This document shows, piece after piece, positions 45,948 to 62,965 of a DNA stretch of 64,000 bases. Origin of the DNA: a bacterium. GTDB taxonomy: Bacteria > SZUA-182 > DTGQ01 > JAFGSM01. Position numbers and translations under genes: made by a program. The DNA is taken from positions 12,225-76,224 of the forward strand of contig JBLIRO010000001.1 of the NCBI GenBank assembly GCA_049472335.1, read 5' to 3'. Within the stretch, counting starts at the first letter, position 1; every line of letters begins with the position of its first letter. The notes beneath the pieces are model-generated. The model made no database searches. It had not been told where the DNA came from and was given only the letters and a program-made list of their open reading frames with translations.

Positions 45948-48900
45948 TCAATAGAATCTGGGATCAGGAGAATGTGGAGCTGAAATTACCCCCCCTGATT
46001 GTGGTCTTCGAAAAGATGGGGAAGGTAAATGTATATGGTCAGGTGCTGTTTTGTCTATAATAGACCCTCCGGCTATAGTTACCGTCCTTATAGTAATTCC
46101 TCTAACTATTTTGTGAGAAATAGAAGTTGCAATTCCTGTTGCCGCTCCCCATATTAATCCTGCACCCATTGTACTAATCATAGGGATTGGATCTACCATT
46201 GGATTACGATTAATACCAATTTCATCTATTATGTTTCCACTTGGATCACGTGTAATCCATTCATTATCAGATGGAAGTTGATTTTTGGGTGAAGGATCTA
46301 GCCAATACGCTGGATTATTAAGAATTTCTTTTGGTGATGTGATATTCCCCCTTTCAGTAGTCTCATCCTTTGGTGAAAGTAAAGGACGTCCGTCATCTTT
46401 ACATGGCTTTTTACATAATCCTAGTGCATCGACAAAGTTAACCGGATTATTCCCCACATACCGATACAAATTAATATCCCCACCAGCAAACCCAATCGGA
46501 TCGGGGGTCAAGAATCTTCCAATTTTCGGATCATAGTACCTTGCTCGATAATAGTATAGTCCACTTTCTGGATCGTATTCTCTGCCAGTATAGGTGTATG
46601 GATTATTCAAAGCACTGGTTTGATCTACTATATTTCCAAAGGAATCGTAGGTGTATTCCTGTTGGGTATTTCCATAAATATCAAGAACTTGCACTATGCT
46701 TCCTAAAGCATCAAATAGGTAATAATATGAAATATCTCCTTGCTCCATTTGGATTGGTTCATCAATACCAAGGCCATGAGTGTAACGGGATGAGATATTG
46801 AAGCTGCCATTCAGGATAAATATAATATCTTCGTCATCATAGATATAATAGGTTTTAACACCATTCACTTCTTTGCAAATTCTTCTACCCAATCCATCGT
46901 AGTAGTAAAAAATGTTATTATTAGAAGTGTTAATTCCTATCAACCGATTTTCAGAATTATAGGTATAGTTTGTAGCTTGGCCTGTGGACTTATTGGTCTT
47001 TCGGGTAAGGCAACCATTAGTATATTGATATGTAAAATCCCCATCATCAAGAAGCCTGTTCCCTGTATCATAGCTCCAACCGGATGTGAGAGCAGAAGAG
47101 AGACGATTTCCCGCTGTATCGTAAGTAAAGGTTTCTGTATCAATGGATGGATGAGCCGCCTGGAGCAACTGATTGAGTTTATCATAGATATAATCATGAT
47201 CACCATCCAGATCTGTCATCTTTGTGCGATTCCCTACTGCATCATATTCATAGCTATAACCGGATATAGTAAATGAATCGAGATTATGATTCAGAGAAGA
47301 AAGATCACCATTGGAATTATAGCTGTAAAGAGAGGAGAGATTATTGGGTAATGTTTTTGAAGTTCTTCGGTTATTTTGATCATATGTAAAGCTTGTAGTC
47401 TGGCCATTTGGATCTGTAATTGTAGTAGGACTATCGAGTTCATTATAGGTGTAATTGGTTACCGAGCCATAGGGATCGGTAATACTCAACCGATTACCAT
47501 TGGAATCATAGGTGTAAGTGATTGTTGTTTGTGGTTGATAGGCGCTGGCTGCCGTCCGGGCAGTAATGGGCCGATTATTATTGTCATAGCTGAAGGAGAG
47601 AGAAGAAAAGGGATTGGTAATGCCGATGATATTGTCCACCTGATCGTAGCTATAAGTAGTCATGCTTCCATCAGCCAAAATCTTTTTTGTCATGCGGTCA
47701 AGACTGTCATACTCATAGTTTATTTTGTCGCTGTTATAGAGTGTTTTTTGAATCAGGTTTCCATTCTTATCATAAGTATAAAATTCTTGCTCTCCTAAAG
47801 GATTAGTCATAGACACCTTACGATTTAGATTATCATAGCTAAAGGTGGTGGTCTGCCCTTTGGCATCGGTAATGGCAAGAAGATTGCCATTTCCATCATA
47901 AACAAATGTGGTTTGACCATTGAGTGGATCGATAGTTTTTATCATCCGATTCTCTAAGTCGTATTCATAGTAAAAAGTATTCCCTTTTGCATTGGTCATA
48001 GAGATGCGATTTCCCATAGCGTCATAGGTATAAGTTGTCTGATTGCCAAGCGGATCGGTCTCTTTGATTAAACGGTTAAGGGCATCGTATTCATAAGCAG
48101 TAGTGGCGCCTTTTGCGTCCATGCTGGTCAAGATATTATCATTGTTGTCATATGTGTAAGTGATTTCATTCCCTAAAGGATCTATGATCTTGACAAGCCT
48201 GTCTTTGCTGTCATATTGGTATTGAGTTGTATTCCCATTTGCATTTGTCATAGAGATACGATTTCCCATAGCGTCATAAGTAAAACTTATTTGCCCTCCT
48301 TCGGGATCAATAAGATTTGTTAAATTATTCATAGCATCATAGGCATAAGTGGTAATATGTCCTAATGAATCAGTAACTGAGATTATATTTCCCGCAGCAT
48401 CATAGGTGTAAGAGGTTACATTTCCCAGGGCATCGGTTTTTTTAATCATATTGCCAAATGAATCATATTCATAAGTGGTAGTGGCACCATTGGCATTTGT
48501 AATAGTATGAACAAGCCCGTTGCTGTAATAGGTCATGGTTGTTGTATGACCAATCGGGTTTGTGACTTTGACTGGATTTCCCTTGGTATCGTAATTAAAG
48601 GTAGTGACCCTGCCTAAGGGATCGGTTATGGTTTTAACTTTATTGAAGGTGCTCTCATACGTATAGATAGTGGTATTCCCTTCTCTATCTGTATAAAAAA
48701 GAAGATTGCCTTTATCATCATATCCTTTTTGGACGGTGGCACCATCAGGGGTATGGATTTTAGTGACATTACCTGATTCCGTATCACGTTCATATGTTGT
48801 GACATTATTTAAAGCATCTGTTTTACTCAATAAGCGTCCATATTTATCTGTTTTCATATGTGTCATATTCCCCTCAGGATCTGTGTACAGATCATCATGA

Positions 48901-51900
48901 GGTAATTGAACTGAGACAGGATTTCTGTATGTCCCGATATTTTCGGGAAGATCGTTTATTAAACCTGACCCGTCAGAAGGAGCGTATTGGTCAATCCCTT
49001 CATCAGGCCAAACAACACTATTAACCATGCCATGAATGTTATAGTTGAACTGGGTAGTCCTGCCAAGAGGATCGGTTTTAGATGTCATAAGATGTTGGTT
49101 ATCATAAGTGAAATTTGTGTTTGATCCATCCGGAGCAATGATTTTAATAAGGTTATTGTCAGCGTCATGGCTAAATTGTGTAGTCCTTCCGGCAGGATCG
49201 CTGATTGAAGCAAGGTTATGGCCGTTGTAAGTAAAAGCAGTAACAAGATCTGCCGGATCGGTAATACTTGCCAATCTGTCATTTGCATCATAGGCATAAG
49301 TTGTGGTCCGGCCATTGGTGTCTGTCTTGGAGGTCTGGAGTCCCTTAGCATTGAATTGATACGTTGTACCATCTTTCATAATGCGGGTGTAGGTGCCATC
49401 ATCATGGCGGGTGAGTTTGGAATAATCTCCTTCAGGTGAAGAAAGTTCCGAAGTTCTAATTCCAAATCCGATATCCTTTATTATCCTGATGCAGTGATTT
49501 ATCAAGTCAGCAATATATAAGTTTCCTGCTCCATCAATTTTTACCATCCTCGGCCAATCCAAGTCTGCCTCAGTCGGGGGGCCTCCATCTCCTGAATAAC
49601 CCCTAGTTCCTGTTCCTGCTATAGTGGTAATTATACCATTGGGATCTACACGCCGTATTCGATTATTACTAAAGTCAGCAATATAGATATATGATCCGTC
49701 AACTTCTACTCCACAGGGATTTCTGAGACACGCCTGTGTAGCAGGGCCCCCATCTCCTGAATAACCCCTGATTCCAGTTCCTGCTATGGTGGTGATTATA
49801 CCGGTAGAGGTGTCCACTCTTCGTATACAACTATTATCCCTGTCAGAAATATACAGATTTCCTGCGGCATCGGTTTCTGCATTAAAGGGACGATTTAAGC
49901 TTGCCTGTGTAGCAGGACCTCCGTCTCCTGAATAGCCCCTGATTCCATTGCCTGCATAAGTAGTGATGATACCGGCAGGATCTATTCGCCGCACACGGTC
50001 ATTTTCTCTGTCAGCAATATATACATTTCCTGCTGCATCAACTGATATCCCTGTCGGAGAGTTAAAGCTTGCCTGTGTAGCAAGGCCTCCGTCTCCTGAA
50101 TATCCTGCTGTTCCGGTACCTGCTATAGTGGTGATGATACCGGCGGGATTTATTCGCCGTATGCTATGATTACCATAGTCAGAAAAATAGATATTTCCAG
50201 CTCTATCAACCGCAATTCCCCAGGGATAAAATATACTTGCCTGTGTAGCAGGCCCGCCGTCTCCTGAATAGCCTATCGTTCCTGTCCCTGCTATAATGCT
50301 GACTACACCAGTGGGGTCGACTCGCACTATGCGTTGGTTATTAGAGTCTGCAATATAGAGATTTCCTTCTGCATCGGCTGCTATCCCATTAGGAGTGTTA
50401 AAGGTTTCCTGTGTAATCGGACCTTGAAAATCTTTTACATAAGTTTTAATGGTGCCTCCAGTATCAAAATACAATTTTTCTCCTGAACCTGAGACAAGCG
50501 TGACATAGTTATCATAAGAATTGCCATAGATCCTTTGCAGTTCGGCAATACTCCAACCTGCACCAATCGGACTGTTAATCCGGTTATCAATGCTGATTTT
50601 GCCCTTAAATTCCCTTTTTAAAGGAAAATCTCGTGGTGCCCGTATAGGATTACCCAGACTATCTAAGACTAATCCCCCCGACTGGGAGGCAAACCATGGA
50701 GCAGCATTGTAATAAGCGGGACACCAATTAATTAGCTCGATAAGATAAGGAAAGCCGCCGGAGGGCAGCTTTTCTCCTCTAAAATTTGTTCCATCAAATA
50801 AATACCTGAAGCTTATATTGTCATTTTTGGGTAAAAAGACACGGCTTGTGTTTATCCCGCCTATATTTACTTTGAATTCTACCTTTTCAATTAAGGCCAC
50901 CTGATTTGAGTCCATTTCATATTCCAGAGAAATCATCGCCTTGGGATCGGCAGAATTGCTTCTATAGAAAAGTGATACGGTATGAGAGGCCCCTATTGAA
51001 TTGTATGCCGGCAGATGATAATCCTCAATCAATTCCCCGTCTTTATAGATGACTTTGCATCCTCCCTTTCCATCCTTATCACTGGATGCAGGGTTATTTT
51101 TTTTTCGACTGGTGTTTTTTACCGGTATTTTTTTTAGTGCTTCGGAGCTTGATGAAGGCCTTGAACCATAGTTTAAATCATACGAACTGAAGTGGACTAC
51201 AAAATACTCCATATATTTTCCATCTTCTGTGATCACACCCATGCCATCGGGAACCCATCTTCCCAGATCCTTACGATAATAGCCCACCGGTACAGGGGTG
51301 CCGGGAGCAAAACCAAGGGAATTTTCTACCAGTATTCGCGTGGGTTTCTCCAAGGTCAAGCCGTCAGGTGTTAGTTTAACAGCAGTGGTAAAATGAGAAG
51401 TAGGGGGCAAATCACCAGGAAGCTCTCGATTGTCGTAGAGCCGCGTAGCTGAAACATTAACTGCTTCTGTCACGGAATTAACCTCAAAATGGAGCTCAAC
51501 ATCACCGGTAGAATTAATCAGTGTTCCTCCATCCTCGGGCGTAATTGTAACAGTTACCGGATCAATGGGAACAAGGTAAATAGGTTCAACTGCAAAATCA
51601 TACCCTGATTGGACATGAATTCGCCTTTGGGCATAAGTGTATCCTTCTTTTTCAATCAGGATTAGATAAAACCCTTCTTTTGGAGTAGGGAAAGAAAATT
51701 TCCCATTTGCATCTGTCATCATCTGGCCCACATTGGCCATTTTAATGGTTGCACTCTCTAAAGGTGCTTCAGTTCTGGCATCAAAGACCTCACCATCGAT
51801 AAAGCCTGATTTTTCAACGATAGTTGGAGTAAGATAGCATAGATCAGATCCATTACAATCCTCATCAATGCCATTACATTGAATTTCAGTTGCGCCAGGA

Positions 51901-53120
51901 TATGCCCCGGGATTTTGATCATGACAGTCTCCGCTCTCTGCCGTATAGCCATCGAAGTCCAGATCTGCCAGGTGAGGAGATGGTGCATCCTTGCCATCAC
52001 AATTTTCATCAATGCCATTCTCGGGAAAATCTGTGGCACCAGGGAAGACAGCAGGATTATTATCATCACAATCCCCTTGCCCAACTGACCAAAGATCTCC
52101 ATCGGCATCATTCAAAACACACGGAAGGTCCTCTCCGCTGCAATCCTGATCTGTATTGTCCTCACATATTTCCGCAATTCCGGGATTAATATTTGGATCG
52201 TTGTCATCACAATCTTGTGGTCCACAAGTACTTCCTTCAATAGAGAAGCCGTCACCATCGGTATCAGTACAACATATCGAATCCTTTCCATTGCAGTCCT
52301 GATCAATACCGTCTTCACAGATCTCAGAAGCGCCAGGGAAAATACTGGCATTGTTGTCATCACAGTCGCCTCCGCAGGTAGTAATATTATCTCCATCTGA
52401 ATCAAAGCCCTCATCTGTTAATGCATTGCAATTATCATCAATATTATTGCAGATTTCGTTGGCATCCGGATTTATATTTGGATCGGTATCATTGCAATCC
52501 CGAGGACCACATAAACCACTTTCAATGGCAAAACCGTCTTCATCAAAATCAGTACAAACAATAGGTCCTCCACTCCCATCAACAATTAACAGGGTTTTGT
52601 TATCTGTATTACTTAGGAGAATCCAATATCCTTTGGAAGGTTCAAGATATTCGGATTCAAGGATTCGTTTATATCCAATCCCTCTTACATAGCCATATAT
52701 CACTTCAATATTGCCATTTTGCACTGAAGCCTTAGCAGGACATGTACAACCACCAATCATAAGCCATCCATCCTCAGATATTGTTTGGTTATACGATTGA
52801 AAGATTGTACCGTTTACACTATATGCTTGGTTTTGATCTAATAGTATCCAATAGCCCTTACCACTCTCGAGTTCTTCATTGTCGGCAACTCGAACATACC
52901 CTATCCCCTTTTTATAACCATAAATAACAACTGCACCAGGGAACAATGATGAAACATAGGCGTTTACAGGTATAACTGGAAGTGAAATCATACTCCAACC
53001 TGCAGGGAAATCCAGATTATTACTTATATTTTCTGCTCCGGCATAAGGAAGATAAACTATTAATAAAGCTATCAATACAAAACAAAAAGACATATAAAAG
53101 ACATTAGTGTTATTTTTCAT
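45948..53120 (-). CDS. Giant secreted teneurin-like polymorphic-toxin protein: Cys-rich MopE-type repeats + carboxypeptidase-regulatory (TTR-like) domain + NHL beta-propeller + YD-repeat shell + RHS core + C-terminal variable domain
   Basis: The 2390-aa product has a signal peptide from the ATG at 53120 (RBS GGGGA). It carries five DxDGDG...DCDD...CDGxDxDC repeats. The NHL repeats read …NLYIADxxNxRIRRVD…IAGTG…GYSGDGGPAT. There are many YD repeats (YTYDxxGN). The RHS core ends …YYDPKIGRFLTPDPIGFAGGDINLYRYVGNNPVNFVDALGL, followed by about 170 aa of unrelated C-terminus. Confidence 0.85.
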   Translation of the reverse strand: MKNNTNVFYMSFCFVLIALLIVYLPYAGAENISNNLDFPAGWSMISLPVIPVNAYVSSLFPGAVVIYGYKKGIGYVRVADNEELESGKGYWILLDQNQAYSVNGTIFQSYNQTISEDGWLMIGGCTCPAKASVQNGNIEVIYGYVRGIGYKRILESEYLEPSKGYWILLSNTDNKTLLIVDGSGGPIVCTDFDEDGFAIESGLCGPRDCNDTDPNINPDANEICNNIDDNCNALTDEGFDSDGDNITTCGGDCDDNNASIFPGASEICEDGIDQDCNGKDSICCTDTDGDGFSIEGSTCGPQDCDDNDPNINPGIAEICEDNTDQDCSGEDLPCVLNDADGDLWSVGQGDCDDNNPAVFPGATDFPENGIDENCDGKDAPSPHLADLDFDGYTAESGDCHDQNPGAYPGATEIQCNGIDEDCNGSDLCYLTPTIVEKSGFIDGEVFDARTEAPLESATIKMANVGQMMTDANGKFSFPTPKEGFYLILIEKEGYTYAQRRIHVQSGYDFAVEPIYLVPIDPVTVTITPEDGGTLINSTGDVELHFEVNSVTEAVNVSATRLYDNRELPGDLPPTSHFTTAVKLTPDGLTLEKPTRILVENSLGFAPGTPVPVGYYRKDLGRWVPDGMGVITEDGKYMEYFVVHFSSYDLNYGSRPSSSSEALKKIPVKNTSRKKNNPASSDKDGKGGCKVIYKDGELIEDYHLPAYNSIGASHTVSLFYRSNSADPKAMISLEYEMDSNQVALIEKVEFKVNIGGINTSRVFLPKNDNISFRYLFDGTNFRGEKLPSGGFPYLIELINWCPAYYNAAPWFASQSGGLVLDSLGNPIRAPRDFPLKREFKGKISIDNRINSPIGAGWSIAELQRIYGNSYDNYVTLVSGSGEKLYFDTGGTIKTYVKDFQGPITQETFNTPNGIAADAEGNLYIADSNNQRIVRVDPTGVVSIIAGTGTIGYSGDGGPATQASIFYPWGIAVDRAGNIYFSDYGNHSIRRINPAGIITTIAGTGTAGYSGDGGLATQASFNSPTGISVDAAGNVYIADRENDRVRRIDPAGIITTYAGNGIRGYSGDGGPATQASLNRPFNAETDAAGNLYISDRDNSCIRRVDTSTGIITTIAGTGIRGYSGDGGPATQACLRNPCGVEVDGSYIYIADFSNNRIRRVDPNGIITTIAGTGTRGYSGDGGPPTEADLDWPRMVKIDGAGNLYIADLINHCIRIIKDIGFGIRTSELSSPEGDYSKLTRHDDGTYTRIMKDGTTYQFNAKGLQTSKTDTNGRTTTYAYDANDRLASITDPADLVTAFTYNGHNLASISDPAGRTTQFSHDADNNLIKIIAPDGSNTNFTYDNQHLMTSKTDPLGRTTQFNYNIHGMVNSVVWPDEGIDQYAPSDGSGLINDLPENIGTYRNPVSVQLPHDDLYTDPEGNMTHMKTDKYGRLLSKTDALNNVTTYERDTESGNVTKIHTPDGATVQKGYDDKGNLLFYTDREGNTTIYTYESTFNKVKTITDPLGRVTTFNYDTKGNPVKVTNPIGHTTTMTYYSNGLVHTITNANGATTTYEYDSFGNMIKKTDALGNVTSYTYDAAGNIISVTDSLGHITTYAYDAMNNLTNLIDPEGGQISFTYDAMGNRISMTNANGNTTQYQYDSKDRLVKIIDPLGNEITYTYDNNDNILTSMDAKGATTAYEYDALNRLIKETDPLGNQTTYTYDAMGNRISMTNAKGNTFYYEYDLENRMIKTIDPLNGQTTFVYDGNGNLLAITDAKGQTTTFSYDNLNRKVSMTNPLGEQEFYTYDKNGNLIQKTLYNSDKINYEYDSLDRMTKKILADGSMTTYSYDQVDNIIGITNPFSSLSFSYDNNNRPITARTAASAYQPQTTITYTYDSNGNRLSITDPYGSVTNYTYNELDSPTTITDPNGQTTSFTYDQNNRRTSKTLPNNLSSLYSYNSNGDLSSLNHNLDSFTISGYSYEYDAVGNRTKMTDLDGDHDYIYDKLNQLLQAAHPSIDTETFTYDTAGNRLSSALTSGWSYDTGNRLLDDGDFTYQYTNGCLTRKTNKSTGQATNYTYNSENRLIGINTSNNNIFYYYDGLGRRICKEVNGVKTYYIYDDEDIIFILNGSFNISSRYTHGLGIDEPIQMEQGDISYYYLFDALGSIVQVLDIYGNTQQEYTYDSFGNIVDQTSALNNPYTYTGREYDPESGLYYYRARYYDPKIGRFLTPDPIGFAGGDINLYRYVGNNPVNFVDALGLCKKPCKDDGRPLLSPKDETTERGNITSPKEILNNPAYWLDPSPKNQLPSDNEWITRDPSGNIIDEIGINRNPMVDPIPMISTMGAGLIWGAATGIATSISHKIVRGITIRTVTIAGGSIIDKTAPDHIHLPSPSFRRPQSGGVISAPHSPDPRFY

Positions 53121-53480
53121 AGCATTCCCCTTAAATAAATTTATTTCATTGCCATTAAATTTCATAAGGAATTGCTTTAAAATAAATAATGAATAGGATT
53201 TGCTTTCCTGTATAAAAGTATAAGCAGAGCTTTCGACTTTTGTTTAAAAAGCTCCTATCTGCATCGTATAGCTCATTTACTAAAATATGGAAGATTTTTA
53301 ATGTCTCACAAACATATCAAATCGCTTGCAAAAAAACAACTGTAGAAGCAGTTTCCAACTAATTATTTTTTTTATAAACTTTTATCCTTCGGTGTGATCC
53401 ATAGATCATGAGTGTTTAGCAAAAGATGAATCTGGTAAATTTCAATCTCTGGCTAAGAAAAAAGAGATAGATGAAATCAT

Positions 53481-53567
53481 CTATCTCTTTTTTGCAATGA
53501 ATAAGGCATTGATATCATTATCAGTAAAATAATGGATTGCCAGCCTTAATATTAGTCTTGGTCTTCA
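53481..53567 (-). CDS. Tiny ORF (28 aa, GTG start) VKTKTNIKAGNPLFYCNDINALFIAKKR, a paralogue of the neighbouring 19-aa ORF
   Basis: The SD GGGGGTG lies 9 nt upstream. The N-terminus matches the 53655-53714 ORF with mainly synonymous differences. The 3' end overlaps an A/T-rich palindrome (53458-53493). Confidence 0.35.
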
Positions 53568-53654
53568 CTTTTAATTCACCCCCTTTTTATTGGAAGAAGA
53601 ACGTGTCACAAGGTCTTTTTCAATATATAATCTTGAGTTTTAAAAGATTAGTGT

Positions 53655-53714
53655 TTAGTATGACCACCAGGGTTTGACATCCACTCCGGCTTTAATGTAG
53701 GTTTTGGTCTTCAT
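53655..53714 (-). CDS. Tiny ORF (19 aa) MKTKTYIKAGVDVKPWWSY with a strong Shine–Dalgarno site
   Basis: The SD AGGAGGTG lies 7 nt upstream of the ATG. The paralogue 90 nt downstream conserves the first 10 aa. Confidence 0.45.
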   Translation of the reverse strand: MKTKTYIKAGVDVKPWWSY

Positions 53715-53885
53715 TCCAATTCACCTCCTTTTTTGCTTTCTGATTTAATAGACGAACAAAAATTATTTTTTCCTTTTTAGATTTTTTATTTTGGGACAAG
53801 CTGATTTTTTTCTACTGCAGAATGACCTTTTACGATCCTATCATTACTGAGAAATCATGGGAATTTGCCTATTGGGAAAAAAACA

Positions 53886-53915
53886 CTTGCATACGTCTAT
53901 TAGAATGAGATATAA
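53886..53915 (+). promoter_or_regulatory. Candidate sigma70-type promoter (TTGCAT-N18-TATAAA) for the HlyD–ABC cassette
   Basis: Hexamers spaced 18 nt apart lie about 30 nt upstream of the ATG at 53946. Confidence 0.25.
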
Positions 53916-53945
53916 AAATCATAGTTGACAAAACAGGGAGATTTT

Positions 53946-55496
53946 ATGTCCTTTACCCGGTCCCTCAGATTTATATATACTGAAAGATCTCGTCTTCCTT
54001 TATGGGGAATCTTTATTCTTATCATTCTCCTTACCTGCTGGATGGTATGGTTTTCTTCCGTAAAGATTCCCATTTATACAATGACGGATTCAGCCCGCCT
54101 AGAAGTGGATCAGGCTTCACACCCCATACAAACATCCATTGATGGAAAGATCACAGAGATTTCCATGAAGCTCGGACAGGAGGTCCAGGTTGGAACAATC
54201 CTGGTCAGATTGGATGATCAGTCCCTTCAGTTGAGAAGAAAAGAAGCGCTGGACCGGTTCAACTCTCTCTCCGCCGAAGCATCGGCCCTGGAAAAACAGA
54301 TATCCCAGGAAGAAATGCTCCTTGAAGAGGAAGGAAAAATCGTCCTTATAAAACTTCAGGAGGCGCGATCCCGTTATCAAGAAGGAGAGATAGCGGCAGT
54401 ATTCGCGGAGGATGAAGTCAAACGTTTAAACAAGCTTTTCACCCAGGGGGCACTATCTGAGTCAAAACTTTTACACGCTAAATCCGAAGCCGAAAAGAAA
54501 AGGGCGTCTGCAGAAGCGCTTCGTATCGCCCTTGACAGGCTAAGAGGGGAATGTCAGGTCCAGGAGAAGAGACGCCAAACGCGCTTGAGTCAACTCAGGC
54601 AGCAACTGCTTCACATTCAGGGAGAGATTCAGAACAGCGCCACGGTAATGGAGCAGCTCGACTGGGAGATTGAGAAGCACCTTATCAGGACTCTGGTGGC
54701 CGGCGAAATTGCCGAGATTGCCGACCTTCATCTCGGGATGTTTATTGAAGAAGGATATAGGCTAGGCGCCATTCTGCCCCAGGGCAAGCTCCGTGTGGTG
54801 GCATATTTTGAGCCGGCAGTCGCCCTTGGCAAGGTTCACCCCGGCCAGAAGGCTCATCTGAGGATGAAGGGCTTTTCCTGGCTGGAATACGGCCGGGTGG
54901 CGGCAAGGGTCCAGAAGGTAAGCCAGGAGATCCGCCACGGACAGTTGCGGGTCGATCTGGAGGTCGACGATAAGGACAGCCCCATCCCTCTGCAGCATGG
55001 TCAGCCGGTAAGGGTCGAGATTGAAACCGAAAGGATTACCCCAGCAACACTGGTTCTGCGAAAAGCGGGAAATGTCTTTTCCCCCGGGTCTCCTTCCGTT
55101 TCCATCAATAATCATTCCCTGACCGTGGAAGTTGTTGCCACCAGAGCAGCAAGACAGCGGGGCCTGATGTACCGGGAAATGCTTCCGGCCGATCATGGGA
55201 TGTTGTTTGTTTTCCCAAGGGAAGGCCCTCTTTCATTCTTGATGAAAGATACGTTTATCCCGCTCAGTATAGCCTTTCTTAATTCCGAAGGGATCATCCT
55301 GAAGATTATGAAAATGTATGTTGAACCTACGAATAATGAAGCGTTGTCTAGAACATATGCCACGGACCCTCATGCGCCTGCTATGTATGCCCTGGAAGTG
55401 AATCAGGGCTGGTTTGAAAGCCATGGGGTTAGACGTGGAAACCGGGTAAAAGGTCTCAAACGATTGAATATCGGCTTTGTAGAATCCCAGGCCTGA
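53946..55496 (+). CDS. HlyD-family periplasmic adaptor (type I / bacteriocin secretion) fused to a C-terminal DUF192/UPF0127 domain
   Basis: The N-terminal TM helix, lipoyl-like domain, long coiled coil and beta-barrel are typical of HlyD. The C-terminal ~110 aa (…RGLMYREMLPADHGMLFVFPREGPLSFLMKDTFIPLSIAFLNSEGII…YALEVNQGWF…GNRV) match the UPF0127/DUF192 consensus. Confidence 0.75.
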   Translation: MSFTRSLRFIYTERSRLPLWGIFILIILLTCWMVWFSSVKIPIYTMTDSARLEVDQASHPIQTSIDGKITEISMKLGQEVQVGTILVRLDDQSLQLRRKEALDRFNSLSAEASALEKQISQEEMLLEEEGKIVLIKLQEARSRYQEGEIAAVFAEDEVKRLNKLFTQGALSESKLLHAKSEAEKKRASAEALRIALDRLRGECQVQEKRRQTRLSQLRQQLLHIQGEIQNSATVMEQLDWEIEKHLIRTLVAGEIAEIADLHLGMFIEEGYRLGAILPQGKLRVVAYFEPAVALGKVHPGQKAHLRMKGFSWLEYGRVAARVQKVSQEIRHGQLRVDLEVDDKDSPIPLQHGQPVRVEIETERITPATLVLRKAGNVFSPGSPSVSINNHSLTVEVVATRAARQRGLMYREMLPADHGMLFVFPREGPLSFLMKDTFIPLSIAFLNSEGIILKIMKMYVEPTNNEALSRTYATDPHAPAMYALEVNQGWFESHGVRRGNRVKGLKRLNIGFVESQA

Positions 55497-55520
55497 CCTG
55501 ACACACACAGGATTTTTTAA

Positions 55521-58262
55521 ATGCTTGTTTCTCTTATCAAAAAACAGAAAAAATCTTTTATCCCGGAGGTCATTCAAAGCTCGGCCATGGATTGCGGTCC
55601 GGCTTCGCTCAAGGCCCTTCTGGAAGGATTCGGCATCCCGGTAAGTTATGGGCGGCTCCGCGAAGCATGTCAGACCAGTGTGGATGGAACGTCCATTGAC
55701 ACACTGGAGGAAGTTTCCAATCAGCTCGGCCTTGAAGCAGAGGAGATCATGCTCCCCCCGGATCACTTCTTTCTCCCGGAAGCGAAGGCCCTGCCCGCTA
55801 TAGTCGTGGTCCGGCTCCCAAGCGGTGTGACCCATTTTGTAGTGGTCTGGGAACGCCATGGCCCTTTTGTACAGGTCATGGACCCGGGCAGCGGAAGACG
55901 CTGGGTCACCTATAAACAGTTCATGAAGGAGGTTTATATCCACCGCATGCCCGTTTCTGCCTCTCTTTGGAGGGAATGGGCAGGATCTGAGGCCTTTCTC
56001 TCTCCCTTCAAAAGGCGCCTGACTCAGCTTGGGATTTCTCAAAGGGAGCAAAAGGAGCTCATTCATCATTCCCTTTCAGACCCTGGCTGGTATCATCTTG
56101 GTGTCCTGGATGCCGCCACCCGAATGGTGGATGCCCTCATGAAAGCCGGTGGACTGCAAAGAGGTCGGGAAGCGGCAAAGGTGCTTCAAACATTTGTCCC
56201 GGAATCCCTTTCAAAGGGTCCTTTTCAGGAATCTCCCATCCCTCCCGTTTACTGGTCCATCCAGCCCATGCCTTCAGCCAGTGACGGGGAGGAGGAACAA
56301 CTGATCCTCAAGGGAATGGTCCTTGTAAGGGTATCAGGCCGCCGTTCGATCCCCTCTGATCAAAAGAAGCAGGATTTTACAGAAAAGGCTCCCCTCCCCC
56401 TGGAGCTTGAGGCAGCCCTTAAAGAACCTCCGGTCAAGCCGGGAAGGGAAATCTTAAGATTCCTCCGGGCCGATGGCATCCTGACTCCCTTAGCCCTGGG
56501 TTTTGCCTTTATTCTTGTATCCTTTGGCTTTATTCTGGAGGCCATATTATTGCGGAGCCTTTTTGAGATCGGAAGGGACCTGAACCTGATAGAACAAAGA
56601 TTAGGCGCAATGGGGGCCCTTATCATCTTTTCCCTTGCCCTGCTGTTGTTAGAGCTCCCTATTGGCTCATGCATCTTAAAACTGGGGCGGCATCTGGAAT
56701 CCCGGCTCAGGATAGCGTTTTTGCAAAAGCTCCCCCGGCTTCAGGACCGCTATTTCCAGAGCCGGCTCAATTCGGACATGGCGGAACGATCTCACAGTGT
56801 TAACAAGATAAGGCTTTTACCCGGATTGGGCAGCCGGTTTGTACGCTCTATAATAGAGTTCTTCATCACTGCCGCGGCCATTGTGTGGCTCTTTCCGGAA
56901 AGTCTTTTAATAGTCCTGGCAGGCGTTTTCCTCACCATCATTATACCGCTTGCCAGCCTGTCATTCCTCACGGAAAGGGACCTTCGGGTACGAAGCCATC
57001 TGGGGGCCTTAAGCCGTTTTTACCTGGATACACTTCTGGGGCTTGTCCCCACGAGGGCACATAGCGCTCAAAAACCTATATGCAGGGAACATGAAAGCAT
57101 GCTCGTGGAATGGAGCAGGGCAAGCCTTCGTAATGTGATCGCTGTACTGACTGTGGAGGCAGTTCAGGACCTGATCGGGTTCGGTATCGCCTTCTGGCTG
57201 CTCCTGCACTATTATAAACGGGGAGGGCCTGAAAGCGGCGTACTTCTCCTGGTTTACTGGGGTCTACATCTATCCGCGCTGGGCCAGGAAATTATAAAAA
57301 CAGCCCGCCAGTATCCTACCCATCGCAATATCGCCCTGCGTCTCATGGAGCCTTTAGGGGCTCCTGAAGAAAACTCCTCCCGGGGAGGGGATTTGTCCCA
57401 AACGAAGGACTCATCTCCTTCAAAAAACAATCTTTCTCATGGGATCTCCATATCCATGGAAGGGGTGGGTATAAAGATCTCCGGTCACAACATATTAGAA
57501 GGCGTGGACCTTGCCATTCCGCCCGGTGCCCATTTCGCAATCATCGGACCATCCGGAGCTGGAAAATCAAGCCTGGTCGGCCTTCTCCTGGACTGGTACC
57601 GTCCGTCCGCGGGAAAGATCCTGATCAATGGAAGGCCTCTTACACCTGAAGTATTGGAAAATATGCGCAAGTCCACCGCCTGGATCGATCCGGCTATACA
57701 GCTTTGGAACCGCTCCCTTATAAAGAACATTTACTACGGCATCGATCCTGAATCAGCCTCTCCTGCCGGAATGGTCATGGAAGAGGCCCAGCTTATGGAA
57801 CTTCTGGAGAAATTACCTCAAGGCCTGGGAACAATCCTGGGAGAAGGCGGAGCACTGGTTTCCGGAGGGGAAGGCCAAAGGGTGCGCCTGGCACGGGCCA
57901 TGGCAAAGGGCGATGTCCGTCTTGTAATCCTGGATGAGCCATTTCGGGGGCTCGACCATCAAAAAAGGGATGAGCTTCTCAATAAGGCCCGCTGCCTCTG
58001 GAAGGATGCCACCCTGATCTGCATTACGCACGATATCAGCGCCACAAAGAGCTTTGACAGGGTCATTGTCATAGAGCATGGGAAGATTGTCGAGCAGGGG
58101 GCCCCGAAAGACCTCGCGGAAAAGGCGGATTCCTTTTACCGGAAATATCTGGATTTTGAAAAAGCGGTCACAGAAGAGATTTGGCGTAAATCATTGTGGA
58201 GGAGGATCTCCATCAAAAAGGGAAGGATTATAGAGGAGGGAGTCCCTGATGGAAAGGTTTGA
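55521..58262 (+). CDS. Peptidase-C39-domain ABC transporter (bacteriocin/peptide processing-export, permease + ATPase)
   Basis: The C39 catalytic Cys (SAMDCGPASL) and His (THFVVVW) are present, followed by six TM helices. The ATPase carries Walker A GPSGAGKSS, signature LSGGEGQR and Walker B LVILDE. Confidence 0.85.
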   Translation: MLVSLIKKQKKSFIPEVIQSSAMDCGPASLKALLEGFGIPVSYGRLREACQTSVDGTSIDTLEEVSNQLGLEAEEIMLPPDHFFLPEAKALPAIVVVRLPSGVTHFVVVWERHGPFVQVMDPGSGRRWVTYKQFMKEVYIHRMPVSASLWREWAGSEAFLSPFKRRLTQLGISQREQKELIHHSLSDPGWYHLGVLDAATRMVDALMKAGGLQRGREAAKVLQTFVPESLSKGPFQESPIPPVYWSIQPMPSASDGEEEQLILKGMVLVRVSGRRSIPSDQKKQDFTEKAPLPLELEAALKEPPVKPGREILRFLRADGILTPLALGFAFILVSFGFILEAILLRSLFEIGRDLNLIEQRLGAMGALIIFSLALLLLELPIGSCILKLGRHLESRLRIAFLQKLPRLQDRYFQSRLNSDMAERSHSVNKIRLLPGLGSRFVRSIIEFFITAAAIVWLFPESLLIVLAGVFLTIIIPLASLSFLTERDLRVRSHLGALSRFYLDTLLGLVPTRAHSAQKPICREHESMLVEWSRASLRNVIAVLTVEAVQDLIGFGIAFWLLLHYYKRGGPESGVLLLVYWGLHLSALGQEIIKTARQYPTHRNIALRLMEPLGAPEENSSRGGDLSQTKDSSPSKNNLSHGISISMEGVGIKISGHNILEGVDLAIPPGAHFAIIGPSGAGKSSLVGLLLDWYRPSAGKILINGRPLTPEVLENMRKSTAWIDPAIQLWNRSLIKNIYYGIDPESASPAGMVMEEAQLMELLEKLPQGLGTILGEGGALVSGGEGQRVRLARAMAKGDVRLVILDEPFRGLDHQKRDELLNKARCLWKDATLICITHDISATKSFDRVIVIEHGKIVEQGAPKDLAEKADSFYRKYLDFEKAVTEEIWRKSLWRRISIKKGRIIEEGVPDGKV

Positions 58263-60369
58263 TATCCTCTACTGGCCTGTCTCCAGACTGGGAGAGGCAC
58301 TAAAGCTTATGGGTGAAATAAGCGGCCTTTCTCCGAAGCCTGAGGAAATCCCTTTGGCCCCTAAAGGGACTAGTGAGAACGAGGACTCCATCTCGGAATG
58401 GATCGAAGCCCTGGCGCAATGGATAGGCATTGAAGCCGAGCCGATGGAGGTCAGCTACGGGGATGTGGAAACATTTATCCTGCGGTCGGCCCCGGCCCTC
58501 ATCCGTCTGCCGGGGGATGGCTCTCCATCCTTTTTTGCACTTCTTGGACAGAAAAAGAAAAAGGCCCTTGTTTTAGGAAAAGACGGGGGCATTCACCCCA
58601 TGGAGGTATCTCACATTGCAAAGATGCTTTGCGGGCCCATGGAGGAAATGCTGGGGCCGCAGATCGAAGATCTGTTAAACAGGGCAGAGATCCCGGAAAA
58701 AAAGAGGGCCGGAATCAAACAGGAGCTTCTTTCCACCCATCTTTCACCTGTTTTGTTAAAGGGATTCTGGCTGCTCCGCCTTGCACCATACCGGGGCTTT
58801 TTTAAGACCCTGTTCCAGGCAAAGGTGATCTTCCCTTTTTTTACCTTTCTCCTTGTCCACACCTTCCAATATCTCTTATGGATACTCTCCTGGTGGGTTA
58901 TAGGAAAAGGGGCGCTTGAGGGCCACCTGCATCTGGAATGGATCATGGGATGGGGGCTTCTCCTTTTGAGCCTTGTTCCCTTAAAGGCCCTTGTGACATG
59001 GGCCGAAGGGCGCCTGGCCATAGGAGTGGGCGGGGTGTTTAAACAGAGGTTACTCTATGGCGCCATGCGTATAGAACCGGATGACATCCGGCACCTTGGA
59101 TCAGGTGCCCTCCTGGGGCGTGTTTTCGAATCAGAAGCCCTGGAATCCCTGGCCCTGAGCGGGGGATTTACAGCGATCCTCGCCCTGGTGGAGCTTATCA
59201 TCTCTCTCGCTGTCCTCATGATAGGTGCAGCCGCGTGGCTTCATACACTGTTTTTTATCCTATGGATGGCCATATTTTCGGTTATACTTTTAAAGTACTT
59301 GAAAGCCCATAAGCTCTGGGTAGAAGGCCGTATCCGGATGACGAACGACCTGGTGGAAAAGATGGCAGGGCATCGGACAAGGCTCACCCAGGAAGCAAAA
59401 GAGCGTTGGCATCAGGGAGAGGATGAAGCCTTGGAGGAGTATCTAAAACAATCAAAGAGGTTAGACCGGTCTTCCCTCCTGATCATGTCCCTTATCTCAA
59501 GGGGATGGATGGTCCTGGGCCTGACCGGACTTGCCCCTGCCTTTGTCCGGGGCGTTTCTCCCGCCTATCTGGCGATCAGCCTGGGAGGAGTGCTGCTGGT
59601 ATATAAGGCACTTAAAAGCCTCTCTGTCAGCCTTGTGCAGCTCATCGGGGCATTCGTAGCATGGAAATACGTATCTCCCTTTTTATATGCAGCCGGCAAA
59701 CCCGAAGAGACAGGGGTCCCCACGTGGACAAAAGCCCGGGAAGACCTTTCGGAAAAGGACCCCCTTCTGGTATCAAGGCACCTGTTTTTTCATTACCCTA
59801 ACCGAAGGGATCCCGTCATTCAGGATAGTGACCTTTCCATCTATTGGGGTGACAAGATACTGCTTGAAGGCCCCTCCGGATGCGGGAAGTCCACCTTGAG
59901 CGCCATCTTATCCAACCTGCGCGATCCCAAGGGAGGCATAATTCTCCTGCACGGACTGGACCGGAACATCCTGGGAAGGAAAAACTGGCACAAATCCGTG
60001 TGCGTTGCACCTCAATTTCATGAAAACCATGTGTTTACAGAAACCTTTGCCTTCAATCTGCTGATGGGGCATCGATGGCCTCCCCGGCCGGAAGATATGC
60101 AGGAGGCAGAAACCATCTGCCATGAGCTCGGACTCAGCGAGGTCCTTTTAAGGATGCCAGCGGGACTGCTCCAGATGGTTGGAGATACCGGATGGCAGCT
60201 CTCCCATGGGGAAAAAAGCCGCCTTTACATGGCAAGGGCCCTTCTCCAAAAGGCGGACCTTATCATCCTGGATGAAACCTTTGCCGCTCTGGACCCCCAG
60301 ACCCTTGAACAATGTCTGCAATGTGTGCTTCGCCGGGCCAAAACCCTTCTGGTGATCACCCATCGTTAA
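58249..60369 (+). CDS. Second ABC transporter (permease + ATPase) with a degenerate, Cys-less N-terminal C39-like domain
   Basis: Carries Walker A GPSGCGKST, signature LSHGEKSR and Walker B LIILDE. It is translationally coupled to the upstream ABC gene and has a strong RBS AGAGGAGGG. Confidence 0.8.
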   Translation: MERFDILYWPVSRLGEALKLMGEISGLSPKPEEIPLAPKGTSENEDSISEWIEALAQWIGIEAEPMEVSYGDVETFILRSAPALIRLPGDGSPSFFALLGQKKKKALVLGKDGGIHPMEVSHIAKMLCGPMEEMLGPQIEDLLNRAEIPEKKRAGIKQELLSTHLSPVLLKGFWLLRLAPYRGFFKTLFQAKVIFPFFTFLLVHTFQYLLWILSWWVIGKGALEGHLHLEWIMGWGLLLLSLVPLKALVTWAEGRLAIGVGGVFKQRLLYGAMRIEPDDIRHLGSGALLGRVFESEALESLALSGGFTAILALVELIISLAVLMIGAAAWLHTLFFILWMAIFSVILLKYLKAHKLWVEGRIRMTNDLVEKMAGHRTRLTQEAKERWHQGEDEALEEYLKQSKRLDRSSLLIMSLISRGWMVLGLTGLAPAFVRGVSPAYLAISLGGVLLVYKALKSLSVSLVQLIGAFVAWKYVSPFLYAAGKPEETGVPTWTKAREDLSEKDPLLVSRHLFFHYPNRRDPVIQDSDLSIYWGDKILLEGPSGCGKSTLSAILSNLRDPKGGIILLHGLDRNILGRKNWHKSVCVAPQFHENHVFTETFAFNLLMGHRWPPRPEDMQEAETICHELGLSEVLLRMPAGLLQMVGDTGWQLSHGEKSRLYMARALLQKADLIILDETFAALDPQTLEQCLQCVLRRAKTLLVITHR

Positions 60370-60504
60370 CCAAAAAATGACCATAAGGATTTACTAAAAA
60401 ATCCTTCTTGACAAAAGGCATCTTCCAGGGATGAAAGTCATCGGTACCAAAATTTCAATCCTAAAGCACCCATTTCATATTCTGTTTTAATACGCATTTT
60501 GTAA

Positions 60505-60714
60505 TCAGCCATAAAGGGGAATTCCTTTTTGTTGAATGAGTTGGATAAATTTAGAAGTTTCTGAAAGATCAACTATGTCAAGAGGTTTTGCCAGTGCAAA
60601 TAAAAGATCACCATTAAATTTATAAAAATCCTTTGGACTTATTCCTTCAATAGCCAAATCAATATCTGTGCTTTCTTTGGCAGGCAATAGACAAGAGCTA
60701 AAAAAGCAATACAC
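60505..60714 (-). pseudogene. Truncated nucleotidyltransferase-domain (MntA-like) fragment
   Basis: The segment ...STDIDLAIEGISPKDFYKFNGDLLFALAKPLDIVDL... is a nucleotidyltransferase C-terminal part. The GS motif is missing and an in-frame stop lies immediately upstream. Confidence 0.3.
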
Positions 60715-60953: not shown

Positions 60954-62393
60954 ATGGCTATGCAAAGGATTCGGGAATATAGCGTTTCCCCCCTTATTAC
61001 TGGCGTCTGGATTCTCGTTTCTATTGGTTTGATAAGAATGTGGCCTTTAAAGACAGTGGAAGCTAAAACTATTCGGCCCAATATTATGATCATCTTTGAC
61101 ACCTCAGGAAGTATGCAGTGGGATGTAAATGGATTAACACTAGACATACCAGATTCACAAGGGCGAAAATATGGCTCCCATGAAGACAGCCGTCTTTCCA
61201 TCACAAAAAGCGTTATTACTGATGTGCTTAATGAGACCAGAACCCTTGCGAACTTCGGTCTTATGACGTTTCTTCAGACCCATTATAACTTAACATCATC
61301 ATCAAATGGATATTTCCCATACTATAAGGCATATAACGGATCTACGGTCACAAAAACCATGTACTTCTCGAAGGAGGTTTTAAACATAAATCAATATACA
61401 GTTGATGGCGTATCCGATCAAAAGGCAAGCAGTGGCAGTCCATGCTATAAGCCGGTCAATTCCTTTGAGTATAATGGGATCAATTATACACTTAGGGCTG
61501 TCAATAACAGCAAGTATCAGAGAGATGTGGGAGACTCGGGGAAAAAAGAGGTGGATCACGACTACTGCTCTCCCTGTGGTAATAAGTGCATGTTTGCCGA
61601 CCCTGATGATGGAATTACCTACAAATGGCTATATCAGGGTAGTTACTACGAATATGAAGAGATGCCGGTCGCAAGTTATACAATTTATCATTTCAAAAAA
61701 TACTATGGCCGGCAGTTCAAGGCATTGGGCACAGAAGACCTAAATGGAGGCTGTAATCTTCCGGTAGATCCCGATGATGTATTTGTATATTATAGCGGAG
61801 TAAACAATATCGACTTTTTATATCCCAATACTGCGCCCTGGGCGTGGCCCATTTATCCGGTTGGAGCAACATACGCAGATGACACAAACCGGGGCGGGGT
61901 TGTGCTTGTACCCTTTTCATTTTCCAGCGACCAGGATGATCAGGAAATGAAAGTCAATGATATCCTTCAGTGGATGGGGCCTCAGACTGCAGGGGGATTG
62001 ATCGCAACCGGATATACACCGACCGGTTCCACTCTCAGCAACGACACAACAGCAAAAGGCTACTATAATGATTTTAAGGAATACTTTCTTGCAGAGGTCA
62101 ATCCGAATGATCCCATTGAGAATAGAATGAACTGTATCCTTTTTATTACCGATGGAGAACCCACCCCTTTATCCGAGGGAAATATGGCAATCACTAATGC
62201 AATGCATCTCTATCAGGATTATGAAATAAGAGTCTATATGGTGGGATTTGGATCAGATGCTGCAGGGAGTGCTACGATAGATGACATTGCGGAAGCCGGA
62301 GGATGCCCCCTAAAACCGGATGGACATTATGCTTACTATGCAAATAATGCTGAGGAACTGAGAGCATCTCTTAGAGATATTATCAATCAATAA
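60954..62393 (+). CDS. von Willebrand factor A (VWA) domain protein with a large insertion in the domain (PilY1-N-terminal-like)
   Basis: The MIDAS motif IIFDTSGSM is separated from ...CILFITDGEPT by about 300 aa. An N-terminal TM/signal sequence is present, with an RBS AAAGGAGA. Confidence 0.55.
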   Translation: MAMQRIREYSVSPLITGVWILVSIGLIRMWPLKTVEAKTIRPNIMIIFDTSGSMQWDVNGLTLDIPDSQGRKYGSHEDSRLSITKSVITDVLNETRTLANFGLMTFLQTHYNLTSSSNGYFPYYKAYNGSTVTKTMYFSKEVLNINQYTVDGVSDQKASSGSPCYKPVNSFEYNGINYTLRAVNNSKYQRDVGDSGKKEVDHDYCSPCGNKCMFADPDDGITYKWLYQGSYYEYEEMPVASYTIYHFKKYYGRQFKALGTEDLNGGCNLPVDPDDVFVYYSGVNNIDFLYPNTAPWAWPIYPVGATYADDTNRGGVVLVPFSFSSDQDDQEMKVNDILQWMGPQTAGGLIATGYTPTGSTLSNDTTAKGYYNDFKEYFLAEVNPNDPIENRMNCILFITDGEPTPLSEGNMAITNAMHLYQDYEIRVYMVGFGSDAAGSATIDDIAEAGGCPLKPDGHYAYYANNAEELRASLRDIINQ

Positions 62394-62520: not shown

Positions 62521-62965
62521 ATAAGATTGGAAATACATATTTCCCTTTTTATATGCAGCCGGCTAGTCCGAAGAGACAGGTGTTCCTGTATGGACGAAAG
62601 ACCGGGAAACCTTTGCCTTCAACCTGCTGATGGGACACCGATGGCCACCCCGGCCGGAAGATATGCAGGAGGCCGAAACCATCTGCCATGAGCTCGGACT
62701 CAGTGAGGTCCTTTTAAGGATGCCCGCTGGACTGTTACAGATGGTGGGAGATACCGGGTGGCAGCTCTCCCATGGGGAAAAAAGCCGCCTTTATATGGCA
62801 AGGGCGCTTCTTCAAAGGGCGGACCTTATCATCCTGGATGAAACCTTTGCAGCACTTGCCCCCCAGACCCTCGAACAATGCCGGCAATGTGTCTTAGCCG
62901 GGCCAAAACCCTTCTGGTTATCAACCACCGTTAATTAAAACCATAACCATAAGGATTTACCCACA
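62521..62965 (+). pseudogene. Decayed partial duplicate of the 3' end of the ABC gene at 58249-60369
   Basis: Nucleotide identity to 59664-60395 is high but interrupted by an internal ~287-bp deletion at an AACCTTTG microhomology and a 1-bp frameshift near the end. The identity extends 25 nt past the stop codon. Confidence 0.75.

Follow-up and report, generated by a model that had tools for sequence, protein, structure and literature searches.

A widespread cassette of a C39 peptidase-containing ABC transporter and its candidate ultrashort leader peptides

The NHLP/Nif11 export triad consists of a HlyD-like protein (TIGR03794), an ABC transporter with a peptidase (TIGR03796) and an ABC transporter without one (TIGR03797) (Haft et al. 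2010, PMC2887384). Double-glycine signals characterised so far comprise 15-18 aa or more, carry hydrophobic residues at -4, -7 and -12, end in G[GAS] and direct cargo of several kDa (PMC12219008). HetC of Nostoc PCC 7120, a peptidase-containing ATP-binding cassette transporter (PCAT), is needed for heterocyst differentiation, and its small-peptide substrate is still unknown (PMC10986499). Here we analysed a 64-kb stretch of bacterial DNA (GCA_049472335.1, contig JBLIRO010000001.1, hereafter the window), in which positions 53925-60369 of the + strand carry three co-oriented genes for a HlyD-family adaptor (hlyD) and two ABC transporter subunits (ABC1 and ABC2). An earlier interpretation made from the DNA letters alone (the sequence-only reading) had called this cassette NHLM-type, without a classical precursor gene in reach. 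Our results place it in a separate PCAT family, and its likely cargo is encoded by two tiny genes next to hlyD.

The export cassette and its family

The adaptor gene (53925-55496, +) encodes 523 aa when read from TTG at 53925; the ATG at 53946, preceded by the Shine-Dalgarno (SD) sequence AGGGAG, is the likelier start. Its product is a periplasmic adaptor of the HlyD/EmrA membrane-fusion type, and generic EmrA and HlyD models outscored TIGR03794. ABC1 (913 aa; 55521-58262, +) contains a C39 peptidase domain (aa 17-137), an insert (aa ~140-320), a six-helix transmembrane domain (TMD), a nucleotide-binding domain (NBD) and a C-terminal tail. ABC2 (706 aa; 58249-60369, +) contains a degenerate C39-like domain, a TMD and an NBD. 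Coordinates 55521-60369 span the two ABC genes only, with the adaptor gene directly upstream. The ATG of ABC2 at 58249, behind GAGGAGGGAG, lies inside the ABC1 gene, whose TGA is at 58260-58262, and because of this 14-nt overlap the two genes are coupled. Both the three-gene composition (adaptor, C39-ABC, C39-degenerate ABC) and the translational coupling of the last two genes had been recognised from the sequence alone, and all three genes were recovered here.

Pfam assigned Peptidase_C39, ABC_membrane and ABC_tran to ABC1, and the peptidase model (PF03412) scored 74 bits (cut-off 22). Alignments of 11 and of 48 members of the family showed that Cys25, His105 and Asp121 of ABC1 were invariant and Gln19 nearly so, and these four residues align with the catalytic residues of PCAT1, ComA and LahT. 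The Cys in DCGPASL and the His in THFVVV, on which the sequence-only reading had based an intact peptidase, belong to this conserved set. The C39 peptidase of ABC1 is thus predicted to be catalytically intact. C39 was also the most conserved domain of ABC1 (mean pairwise identity 76.6% vs 66.8% for the NBD), which fits the near-invariant leader described below. The AlphaFold model of ABC1 (pLDDT 74.7) showed a type IV ABC exporter fold with a docked peptidase domain. Its top Foldseek matches in the PDB were PCAT1 chains (TM 0.69-0.71 over ~880 columns), and PCAT1 was the top structural match for the predicted models of both subunits. The 180-aa insert was well predicted as a helical bundle plus strands and had no Pfam match. 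It was present, always at an identical position, in 611 representatives of 50%-identity clusters. The NBD signature region of ABC1 reads SGGEGQR.

In ABC2 the ABC ATPase was the sole Pfam hit, and the N-terminal domain matched no Pfam model. When a profile of 40 ABC2 homologues was aligned with the C39 profile of ABC1, residues 51-128 matched with an hhalign probability of 90% (E 1.4e-6). Phe occupies the position of the catalytic His in 41 of 46 ABC2 homologues, and the N-terminal helix has Ser, Glu or Ala in place of the catalytic Cys. The AlphaFold model of ABC2 (pLDDT 84.7), compared as a whole and not as a separate N-terminal domain, aligned with PCAT1 and HlyB (8dck_A) over 730-745 columns, whereas ABC exporters without an N-terminal domain aligned over ~550 columns only. 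ABC2 therefore carries what is known as a C39-like domain, with the C39 fold and no catalytic Cys, and the Cys-less C39 remnant suspected earlier is borne out by profile and model. This dead domain is the least conserved part of ABC2 (41% mean pairwise identity), and the non-canonical signature motif LSHGE is nearly invariant in the family. Because one peptidase is live and one dead, the ATP-site motifs are asymmetric and the genes overlap, ABC1 and ABC2 probably form a heterodimer.

ABC1 scored 185.1 bits with TIGR03796, its best-scoring NCBIfam model, against a cut-off of 853.3. ABC2 reached 96.8 bits with TIGR03797 (cut-off 709.4), below the CydC models (141.8), and the adaptor reached 36.1 bits with TIGR03794 (cut-off 156.2). 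The three proteins lie four- to seven-fold under the curated NHLM cut-offs, and NHLM/NHLP membership was rejected because all three scores were so low. The sequence-only reading was accordingly right about the architecture and wrong about the label: the profile check that it had proposed places the proteins outside the family. Its observation that no NHLP or Nif11 precursor is present held among the ORFs tested: neither NHLP (TIGR03793) nor Nif11-type (TIGR03798) models matched those near the cassette or the tiny peptides, a scan that did not cover every small ORF of the window.

The C39 catalytic residues and the fold of the model identify ABC1 as a PCAT. With TIGR01193 (bacteriocin_ABC) it scored 146 bits against a cut-off of 523.85, so that it is a PCAT by domain content and fold, outside that curated subfamily. 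A family search with ABC1 gave 5605 matches, and at least 573 genome loci were confirmed among 600 stretches inspected. The members are proteins of ~870-1000 aa, 47-57% identical over their full length, and occur in Acidobacteriota, Chloroflexota, Myxococcota (Sorangium), Planctomycetota, Verrucomicrobiota, Entotheonella, Thiomargarita, Desulfonema and others. Judged by sequence, the cassette belongs to a separate and widespread family of ~900-aa PCATs marked by the 180-aa insert.

A conserved leader on tiny genes beside the cassette

Two tiny genes were found in the 760-nt spacer between hlyD and a large RHS gene, 210 nt upstream of hlyD and divergent from it. Tiny gene 1 (53655-53714, -) starts with ATG behind the strong SD sequence AAGGAGGTGA and encodes the 19-aa peptide MKTKTYIKAGVDVKPWWSY, in which the leader MKTKTYIKAG is followed by the core VDVKPWWSY. 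Tiny gene 2 (53521-53568, -) starts with GTG behind another strong SD sequence, GGGGGTGA, and encodes the 15-aa peptide MKTKTNIKAGNPLFY, in which MKTKTNIKAG is followed by NPLFY. With a position-specific scoring matrix (PSSM) of the leader they scored 27.1 and 30.7 bits, respectively, and the next best small ORF of the window scored 2.1 bits. These two ORFs, both beside the cassette, were the only leader matches in the whole 64 kb. An intrinsic terminator with a 16-bp perfect hairpin and a U-tract (53452-53493, -) ends this two-gene micro-operon; on folding it had a dG of -21.8 kcal/mol (z -4.5), and 0 of 200 shuffled sequences were as stable.

The sequence-only reading had named a 19-aa and a 28-aa ORF as the only nearby candidates. 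The 19-aa ORF is tiny gene 1 (53714-53655, -), and the 28-aa ORF could not be identified with certainty. It may be the ORF at 53822-53908 (+), which has no SD sequence and no leader and is not conserved in the closest relative, or it may be a longer reading of tiny gene 2, whose true start by homology is the GTG at 53568. A further ORF at 60438-60512 (MADYKMRIKTEYEMGALGLKFWYR) was considered as a third, decayed tiny gene and rejected, as it gave no score with the leader PSSM.

The closest relative with flanking sequence (L001, GCA_049472295.1; ABC1 77% identical) carries six tiny ORFs on both sides of its cassette. Their leaders read (M/V)K[TQ]K[TS][NG][IV]K[ASC]G and precede unrelated cores of 5-19 residues; a probable seventh ORF starts with GTA. 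The DNA of tiny gene 1 is homologous to the tiny genes of this relative, and the core NPLFY of tiny gene 2 has a counterpart there, SPLFY. At 8191-8280 of the relative, a tiny ORF joins the leader VKTKTNIKAG directly to MNKADLVEKMAGEAGISKV, which we take to resemble the N-terminus of an HU/IHF-type DNA-binding protein, and the frame does not continue. This may be an example of new cores arising when a leader lands before unrelated sequence.

To follow the leader across the family, the PSSM, built from first regular-expression hits, was run on 82 fetched loci and the window (83 sources). The scan returned 124 ORFs of at least 8 bits vs 1 in reversed sequences, and 116 ORFs of at least 16 bits, from 43 of the 83 sources, vs 0 reversed. 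The consensus leader is MK[VT]K[TS]N[VI]KAG, 10 residues long. Most of these ORFs are at most a few hundred nt away from where hlyD starts or ABC2 stops, nearly all are preceded by SD sites of the AGGAG type, and they often form tandem arrays (14 copies in L007, 9 in L032). Three further relatives, fetched independently, all carried leader ORFs. ORFs with the KAG-ending leader occur in Acidobacteriota, Chloroflexota, the lineage of the window itself and others.

Codon variation was analysed in 113 distinct nucleotide versions. From codon 2 to codon 10 the third positions varied (1.06-1.91 bits) and the first and second positions were nearly fixed. The entropies of the three positions were 0.29/0.20/1.91 bits at Ala9 and 0/0/1.75 bits at Gly10. 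From codon 11 on, all three positions varied equally and the amino-acid entropy jumped from 0 to 3.7 bits. This third-position variation suggests that the tiny ORFs are translated and that selection acts on the 10-residue peptide and stops after Gly10. At the boundary, -2 is Ala, -1 is Gly and -4 is Val, Ile or Leu, in keeping with the need of C39 peptidases for a pair of small residues after a hydrophobic one.

The linkage was also found in the reverse direction. Back-translated leader DNA alone, used as a query, retrieved at least 120 metagenome contigs with 248 distinct leader-type peptides. Of the 37 contigs of at least 4 kb, 15 carried HlyD, ABC1 and ABC2 homologues next to the tiny ORFs (45-52% identity to the ABC1 of the window); the remaining contigs were mostly too short for a transporter call. 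When the cores were pooled (n = 336), their median length was 11 residues, 164 had 10 residues or fewer and the shortest had 4, and many contained Cys or Trp-Gly motifs. A conserved family of 60-aa proteins in Anaerolineae and a LysM protein of 66 aa begin with the same leader, which thus behaves as a general export tag.

Nine Anaerolineae loci (L009, L028, L035, L037, L050, L052, L071, L075 and L078) encode the 60-aa protein, MKVRTxIKAG-GLGD...TGKxCGC..., near an ABC1 homologue, together with pentapeptide-repeat, ParA and SPFH genes; our ORF heuristic detected neither HlyD nor ABC2 in them. As these heuristics missed hlyD or ABC2 in many GC-rich loci, counts of full triads were unreliable and were not used. 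Six metagenome loci (L113, L117, L125, L135, L164 and L188) have ORFs with two or three internal leader-like repeats, which look like multi-core precursors with a conserved NHNQT spacer.

No Pfam or NCBIfam model matched the tiny peptides, even when E values up to 10 were admitted, though models of 10-residue motifs may simply not exist. Database copies, few in number in an exact-sequence look-up, are named 'hypothetical protein', and searches of the literature outside subscription journals found no description of the leader or the arrays and no occurrence of the leader strings. The sequence-only reading had left two alternatives for the substrate. An unconventional, very short peptide is strongly supported, since tiny ORFs next to homologous cassettes have a conserved leader of 10 residues in many phyla, and a substrate encoded elsewhere is not needed, as candidate cargo adjoins the cassette.

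Regulation and gene neighbourhood

A promoter-like motif, GGAAA-N14-CGTCTA, lies at 53749-53773 (-), ~35 nt upstream of tiny gene 1, and a second copy at 53875-53899 (+), ~47 nt upstream of the likely hlyD start. With a third site there are 3 matches in the window vs 0.11 expected. L001 has 4 matches vs 0.01 expected, and there too the motif precedes the tiny genes and hlyD (8630-8654). The CGTCTA element presumably resembles the -10 box of extracytoplasmic-function (ECF) sigma factors, and we take the whole motif to be ECF-sigma promoter-like. The third site (GGAAAC-N14-ACGTCTA; 43787-43812, -) lies ~136 nt upstream of a gene for a 2154-aa alpha-2-macroglobulin (37187-43651), which hints that one regulator or sigma factor serves this gene as well as the tiny genes and the transporter. 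A scan of window ORFs that covered ~0-15 kb and 24-64 kb found no ECF sigma factor, kinase or LytTR regulator, and no sigma54 promoter site of at least 9 of 11 positions was found upstream of the tiny genes of the window.

The regulatory setting is different in Acidobacteriota. At many of their loci, ABC2 is followed by a receptor Ser/Thr kinase of kinase-TM-PD40 layout, and consensus sigma54 promoters (TGGCAC-N5-TTGCA) lie 40-100 nt before the first tiny ORF of the arrays (background 0.014 per 200 nt). An FHA-GAF-sigma54 activator was present in 13 loci and LytTR regulators in 14 of the 83. Seven Acidobacteriota loci (L008, L015, L021, L023, L032, L038 and L045) have the order ABC2, receptor kinase, divergent FHA-GAF-sigma54 activator, sigma54 promoter and tiny-gene array, the last with 3-6 near-identical tiny genes and cores such as SALWGS. 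This layout suggests a complete, putative autoinduction loop. Recurrent neighbours over the 83 loci were kinases, regulators, pentapeptide-repeat, SPFH and ParA proteins; no modifying-enzyme family was recurrent beside the cassette in these loci.

Several features of the window concern the cassette and its surroundings. A DUF192 domain is fused in frame at the C-terminus of the adaptor (aa 400-509; window 55122-55451). The fusion was not found in the adaptors of the other 82 loci examined, and the adaptors of the two closest relatives, which are without DUF192, end ~120 residues earlier. The cassette (53925-60369) is an island of high GC content (0.52 vs 0.43 in the window and 0.32 in the tiny-gene spacer), and L001 shows a like contrast (0.575 in the cassette vs 0.39-0.48). 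This contrast in both genomes suggests horizontal acquisition of the transporter genes.

What remains of a second ABC2 copy, a decayed stretch of its 3' end, lies at 62528-62960 (+). It corresponds to the last ~700 nt of the gene, sits 2.2 kb downstream of the real one, is 84-90% identical to it and has a 297-nt internal deletion and a frameshift. The low-GC segment (0.39) between ABC2 and the relic carries a gene for a 479-aa VWA/CglB-like protein (60954-62393). In L001 a similar relic of the ABC2 end lies downstream of that gene and is flanked on either side by tiny genes, and the two relics together suggest that insertion or recombination has occurred repeatedly at the 3' end of ABC2. The next gene downstream of the tiny genes, beyond their terminator, is that for a 2405-aa RHS/YD-repeat, NHL-repeat, teneurin-like protein (45948-53165, -), which carries MopE-type metal-binding motifs and a Sec-type signal. 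At 4324-6120, a P-type ATPase is spread over two adjacent 297-aa ORFs, one with its N-terminal part (E1-E2_ATPase) and the other with its C-terminal part (Hydrolase, Cation_ATPase_C), which look like a split or truncated gene.

Proposed mechanism and comparison with known systems

We consider it likely that the cassette is a tripartite, leader-dependent machine for peptide processing and secretion, and that its cargo is encoded by the divergent two-gene micro-operon 210 nt upstream. The two pre-peptides, sharing the 10-residue leader MKTKT(Y/N)IKAG, would be cleaved by the C39 domain of ABC1 after Ala9-Gly10, the pair of small residues that C39 peptidases require. The released 9-mer VDVKPWWSY and 5-mer NPLFY would then be pumped out through the adaptor, and a TolC-like channel encoded elsewhere would presumably complete the export path. 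The tiny genes and the transporter operon may be co-regulated through their common GGAAA-N14-CGTCTA element. We observed the genes, their pattern of conservation and selection, the linkage in both search directions, the catalytic residues and the common upstream motif; the cleavage site, export, heterodimer formation and regulation we infer from them.

As for the role of the released peptides, extracellular signalling is favoured because Acidobacteriota cassettes have a receptor kinase and an FHA-GAF-sigma54 activator nearby and sigma54 promoters on their arrays, though we give it rather less than an even chance. More tentatively, and with greater doubt, the KAG leader could mark an unrecognised, phylum-spanning class of ultrashort ribosomal peptides (cores of 4-20 residues) with a dedicated heterodimeric PCAT, which in Acidobacteriota would be autoinducing signals read by receptor Ser/Thr kinases and FHA-sigma54 activators.

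Several points weigh against the proposed mechanism or parts of it. Translation, cleavage and export of the tiny peptides are deduced from comparative data, and the heterodimer from gene coupling and asymmetric motifs only. The leader, at 10 aa, is shorter than any characterised double-glycine signal (15-18 aa), and it has Lys at -7, where a hydrophobic residue is usual. The alternation of its residues points to a strand and not an amphipathic helix, so that recognition may differ from that of known PCATs. About 40 of the 83 sources had no leader-type ORF within 10 kb, and relaxed PSSM thresholds gave no alternative leader in these loci; linkage is not obligatory, and some arrays lie 5-9 kb from the cassette. 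The PSSM was trained on the same loci that it scanned, a circularity mitigated by the reversed control, the third-position analysis and the independent metagenome scan. A signalling role finds no support inside the window, where the neighbours are an RHS toxin and a VWA-like protein.

Other explanations were weighed against the same evidence. The tiny peptides may be true substrates and yet be precursors of peptides made on ribosomes and then modified post-translationally (RiPPs), with modifying enzymes that are unlinked or represented by the fused DUF192, in which case the products would not be the plain 9-mer and 5-mer. Conserved leaders, hypervariable cores, multi-copy arrays and multi-unit precursors are what RiPPs typically show, Cys or Trp-Gly motifs are present in many of the cores, and the adaptor of the window is unique in carrying DUF192, a domain of unknown function. 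We nevertheless regard this as unlikely: no modifying-enzyme family recurs at the 83 loci, DUF192 is missing from all the others, and with 10 residues the leader is short both for export and for recognition by an enzyme. It is very unlikely that the cassette is a genuine NHLM/NHLP triad, with NHLP or Nif11 precursors elsewhere in the genome and the tiny ORFs merely incidental. The three-gene architecture is indeed that of TIGR03794/96/97 (PMC2887384), and TIGR03796 is the top NCBIfam model for ABC1, but all three proteins fall far below the cut-offs and the tiny ORFs track the ABC1 family across phyla. The ORFs tested in the 64 kb visible gave no NHLP or Nif11 match either, though distant precursors could still exist.

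Only a very slim chance is left for the tiny ORFs being regulatory upstream ORFs, attenuator leader peptides or repeated non-coding DNA instead of cargo. They are very short, intergenic beside an operon and preceded by a conserved motif, and in the window they lie upstream of the giant RHS gene on the same strand. Against this, a strong terminator separates them from the RHS gene, and the third-position variation points to selection on the peptide and not on the DNA. Tandem arrays of up to 14 occur on either strand, and they often follow ABC2 or, with sigma54 promoters of their own, stand at a distance of 5-9 kb. A constant N-terminus with a variable C-terminus is the opposite of attenuator peptides, and the same leader heads ~60-aa proteins and a LysM-domain protein. 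Scarcely any weight can be given to the idea that the transporter is a type I secretion system of the HlyB kind and exports the 2405-aa RHS/teneurin-like toxin or the VWA-like protein of 479 aa in place of peptides. The ABC1 peptidase is intact, unlike the HlyB domain, the RHS protein has a hydrophobic signal of Sec type at its start and is not conserved as a neighbour, and the 479-aa gene lies inside the low-GC insert between ABC2 and the relic; these facts outweigh the presence of large secreted-looking proteins on both flanks and of a C39-like domain in HlyB-type exporters.

If the micro-operon does encode the cargo, the consequences reach beyond this locus. ORFs of 14-30 codons are skipped by gene callers, and as a result a transporter family on the scale of >573 genome loci, 611 clusters at 50% identity and thousands of matches has been annotated 'ABC transporter' without known cargo. 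With a searchable 10-residue leader paired to the transporter, candidate secreted peptides could be tested by the hundreds in poorly cultured phyla of soil and sediment, and the candidates are short enough for synthesis. Should the peptides be signals, leader-dependent peptide communication would extend well beyond Firmicutes, and they would be a ligand class for many orphan receptor Ser/Thr kinases of Acidobacteriota. Should the KAG peptides form one class as outlined above, there would be peptide quorum sensing in abundant Gram-negative soil phyla, with the 5-mer and 9-mer of the window as members. For secretion engineering, too, there would be practical interest in an export tag of 10 residues that a highly conserved C39 domain recognises.

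Across the family, the components recall the ComC/ComAB/ComDE, Blp and Agr circuits, with a leader peptide, a C39-ABC exporter, a sensor kinase and an activator driving the peptide genes. Unlike in these Gram-positive pheromone circuits, the sensor is a putative eukaryote-like Ser/Thr kinase with an extracytoplasmic PD40 propeller and the activator a putative FHA-GAF-sigma54 enhancer-binding protein, the functional links being deduced; the kinase and activator were found at other loci and not among the window ORFs scanned. HetC is alike in being a long PCAT with an extra N-terminal region, from a Gram-negative phylum, and a proposed exporter of a small regulatory peptide. Its extra domain is a cyclic-nucleotide-binding domain located before the peptidase, whereas the insert of ABC1 follows the peptidase and has no Pfam match. 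At the sequence level the comparison was limited to the NCBIfam model HepA_fam_ABC, which matched the NBD only.

The NHLP/Nif11 triad has the same gene order and logic of adaptor, C39-ABC and ABC without an active peptidase, and its substrates are likewise paralogous families of leader-bearing peptides, often adjacent. It differs in that ABC1 has the 180-aa insert, in that no enzymes for thiazole/oxazole-modified microcins (TOMMs) or lanthipeptides are linked here, and in its leader domains of ~70-80 residues, as compared with 10 here, followed by cores of 4-20.

With PCAT1, ComA, LahT and CvaAB-TolC the system shares the Gln-Cys-His-Asp set and the PCAT fold (TM 0.69-0.71 to PCAT1). As in the PCAT1/CvaAB type, two small residues close the leader and -4 is hydrophobic, and a membrane-fusion (HlyD) partner is present, as in diderms. 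Known PCATs are homodimers with two active peptidases, whereas here one live and one dead peptidase are encoded by coupled genes. Known PCAT signals are hydrophobic at -7 and -12 (PMC12219008), whereas the present leader has Lys at -7 and -9; with 10 aa and an A-G end it falls outside the double-glycine leaders, although its -4 residue is hydrophobic. Known PCAT cargo has 17-100 residues, and the cores here have a median of 8-11 and a minimum of 4. The tiny leader peptides appear to be new, and the general kind to which they belong, leader-dependent PCAT export, is already known.

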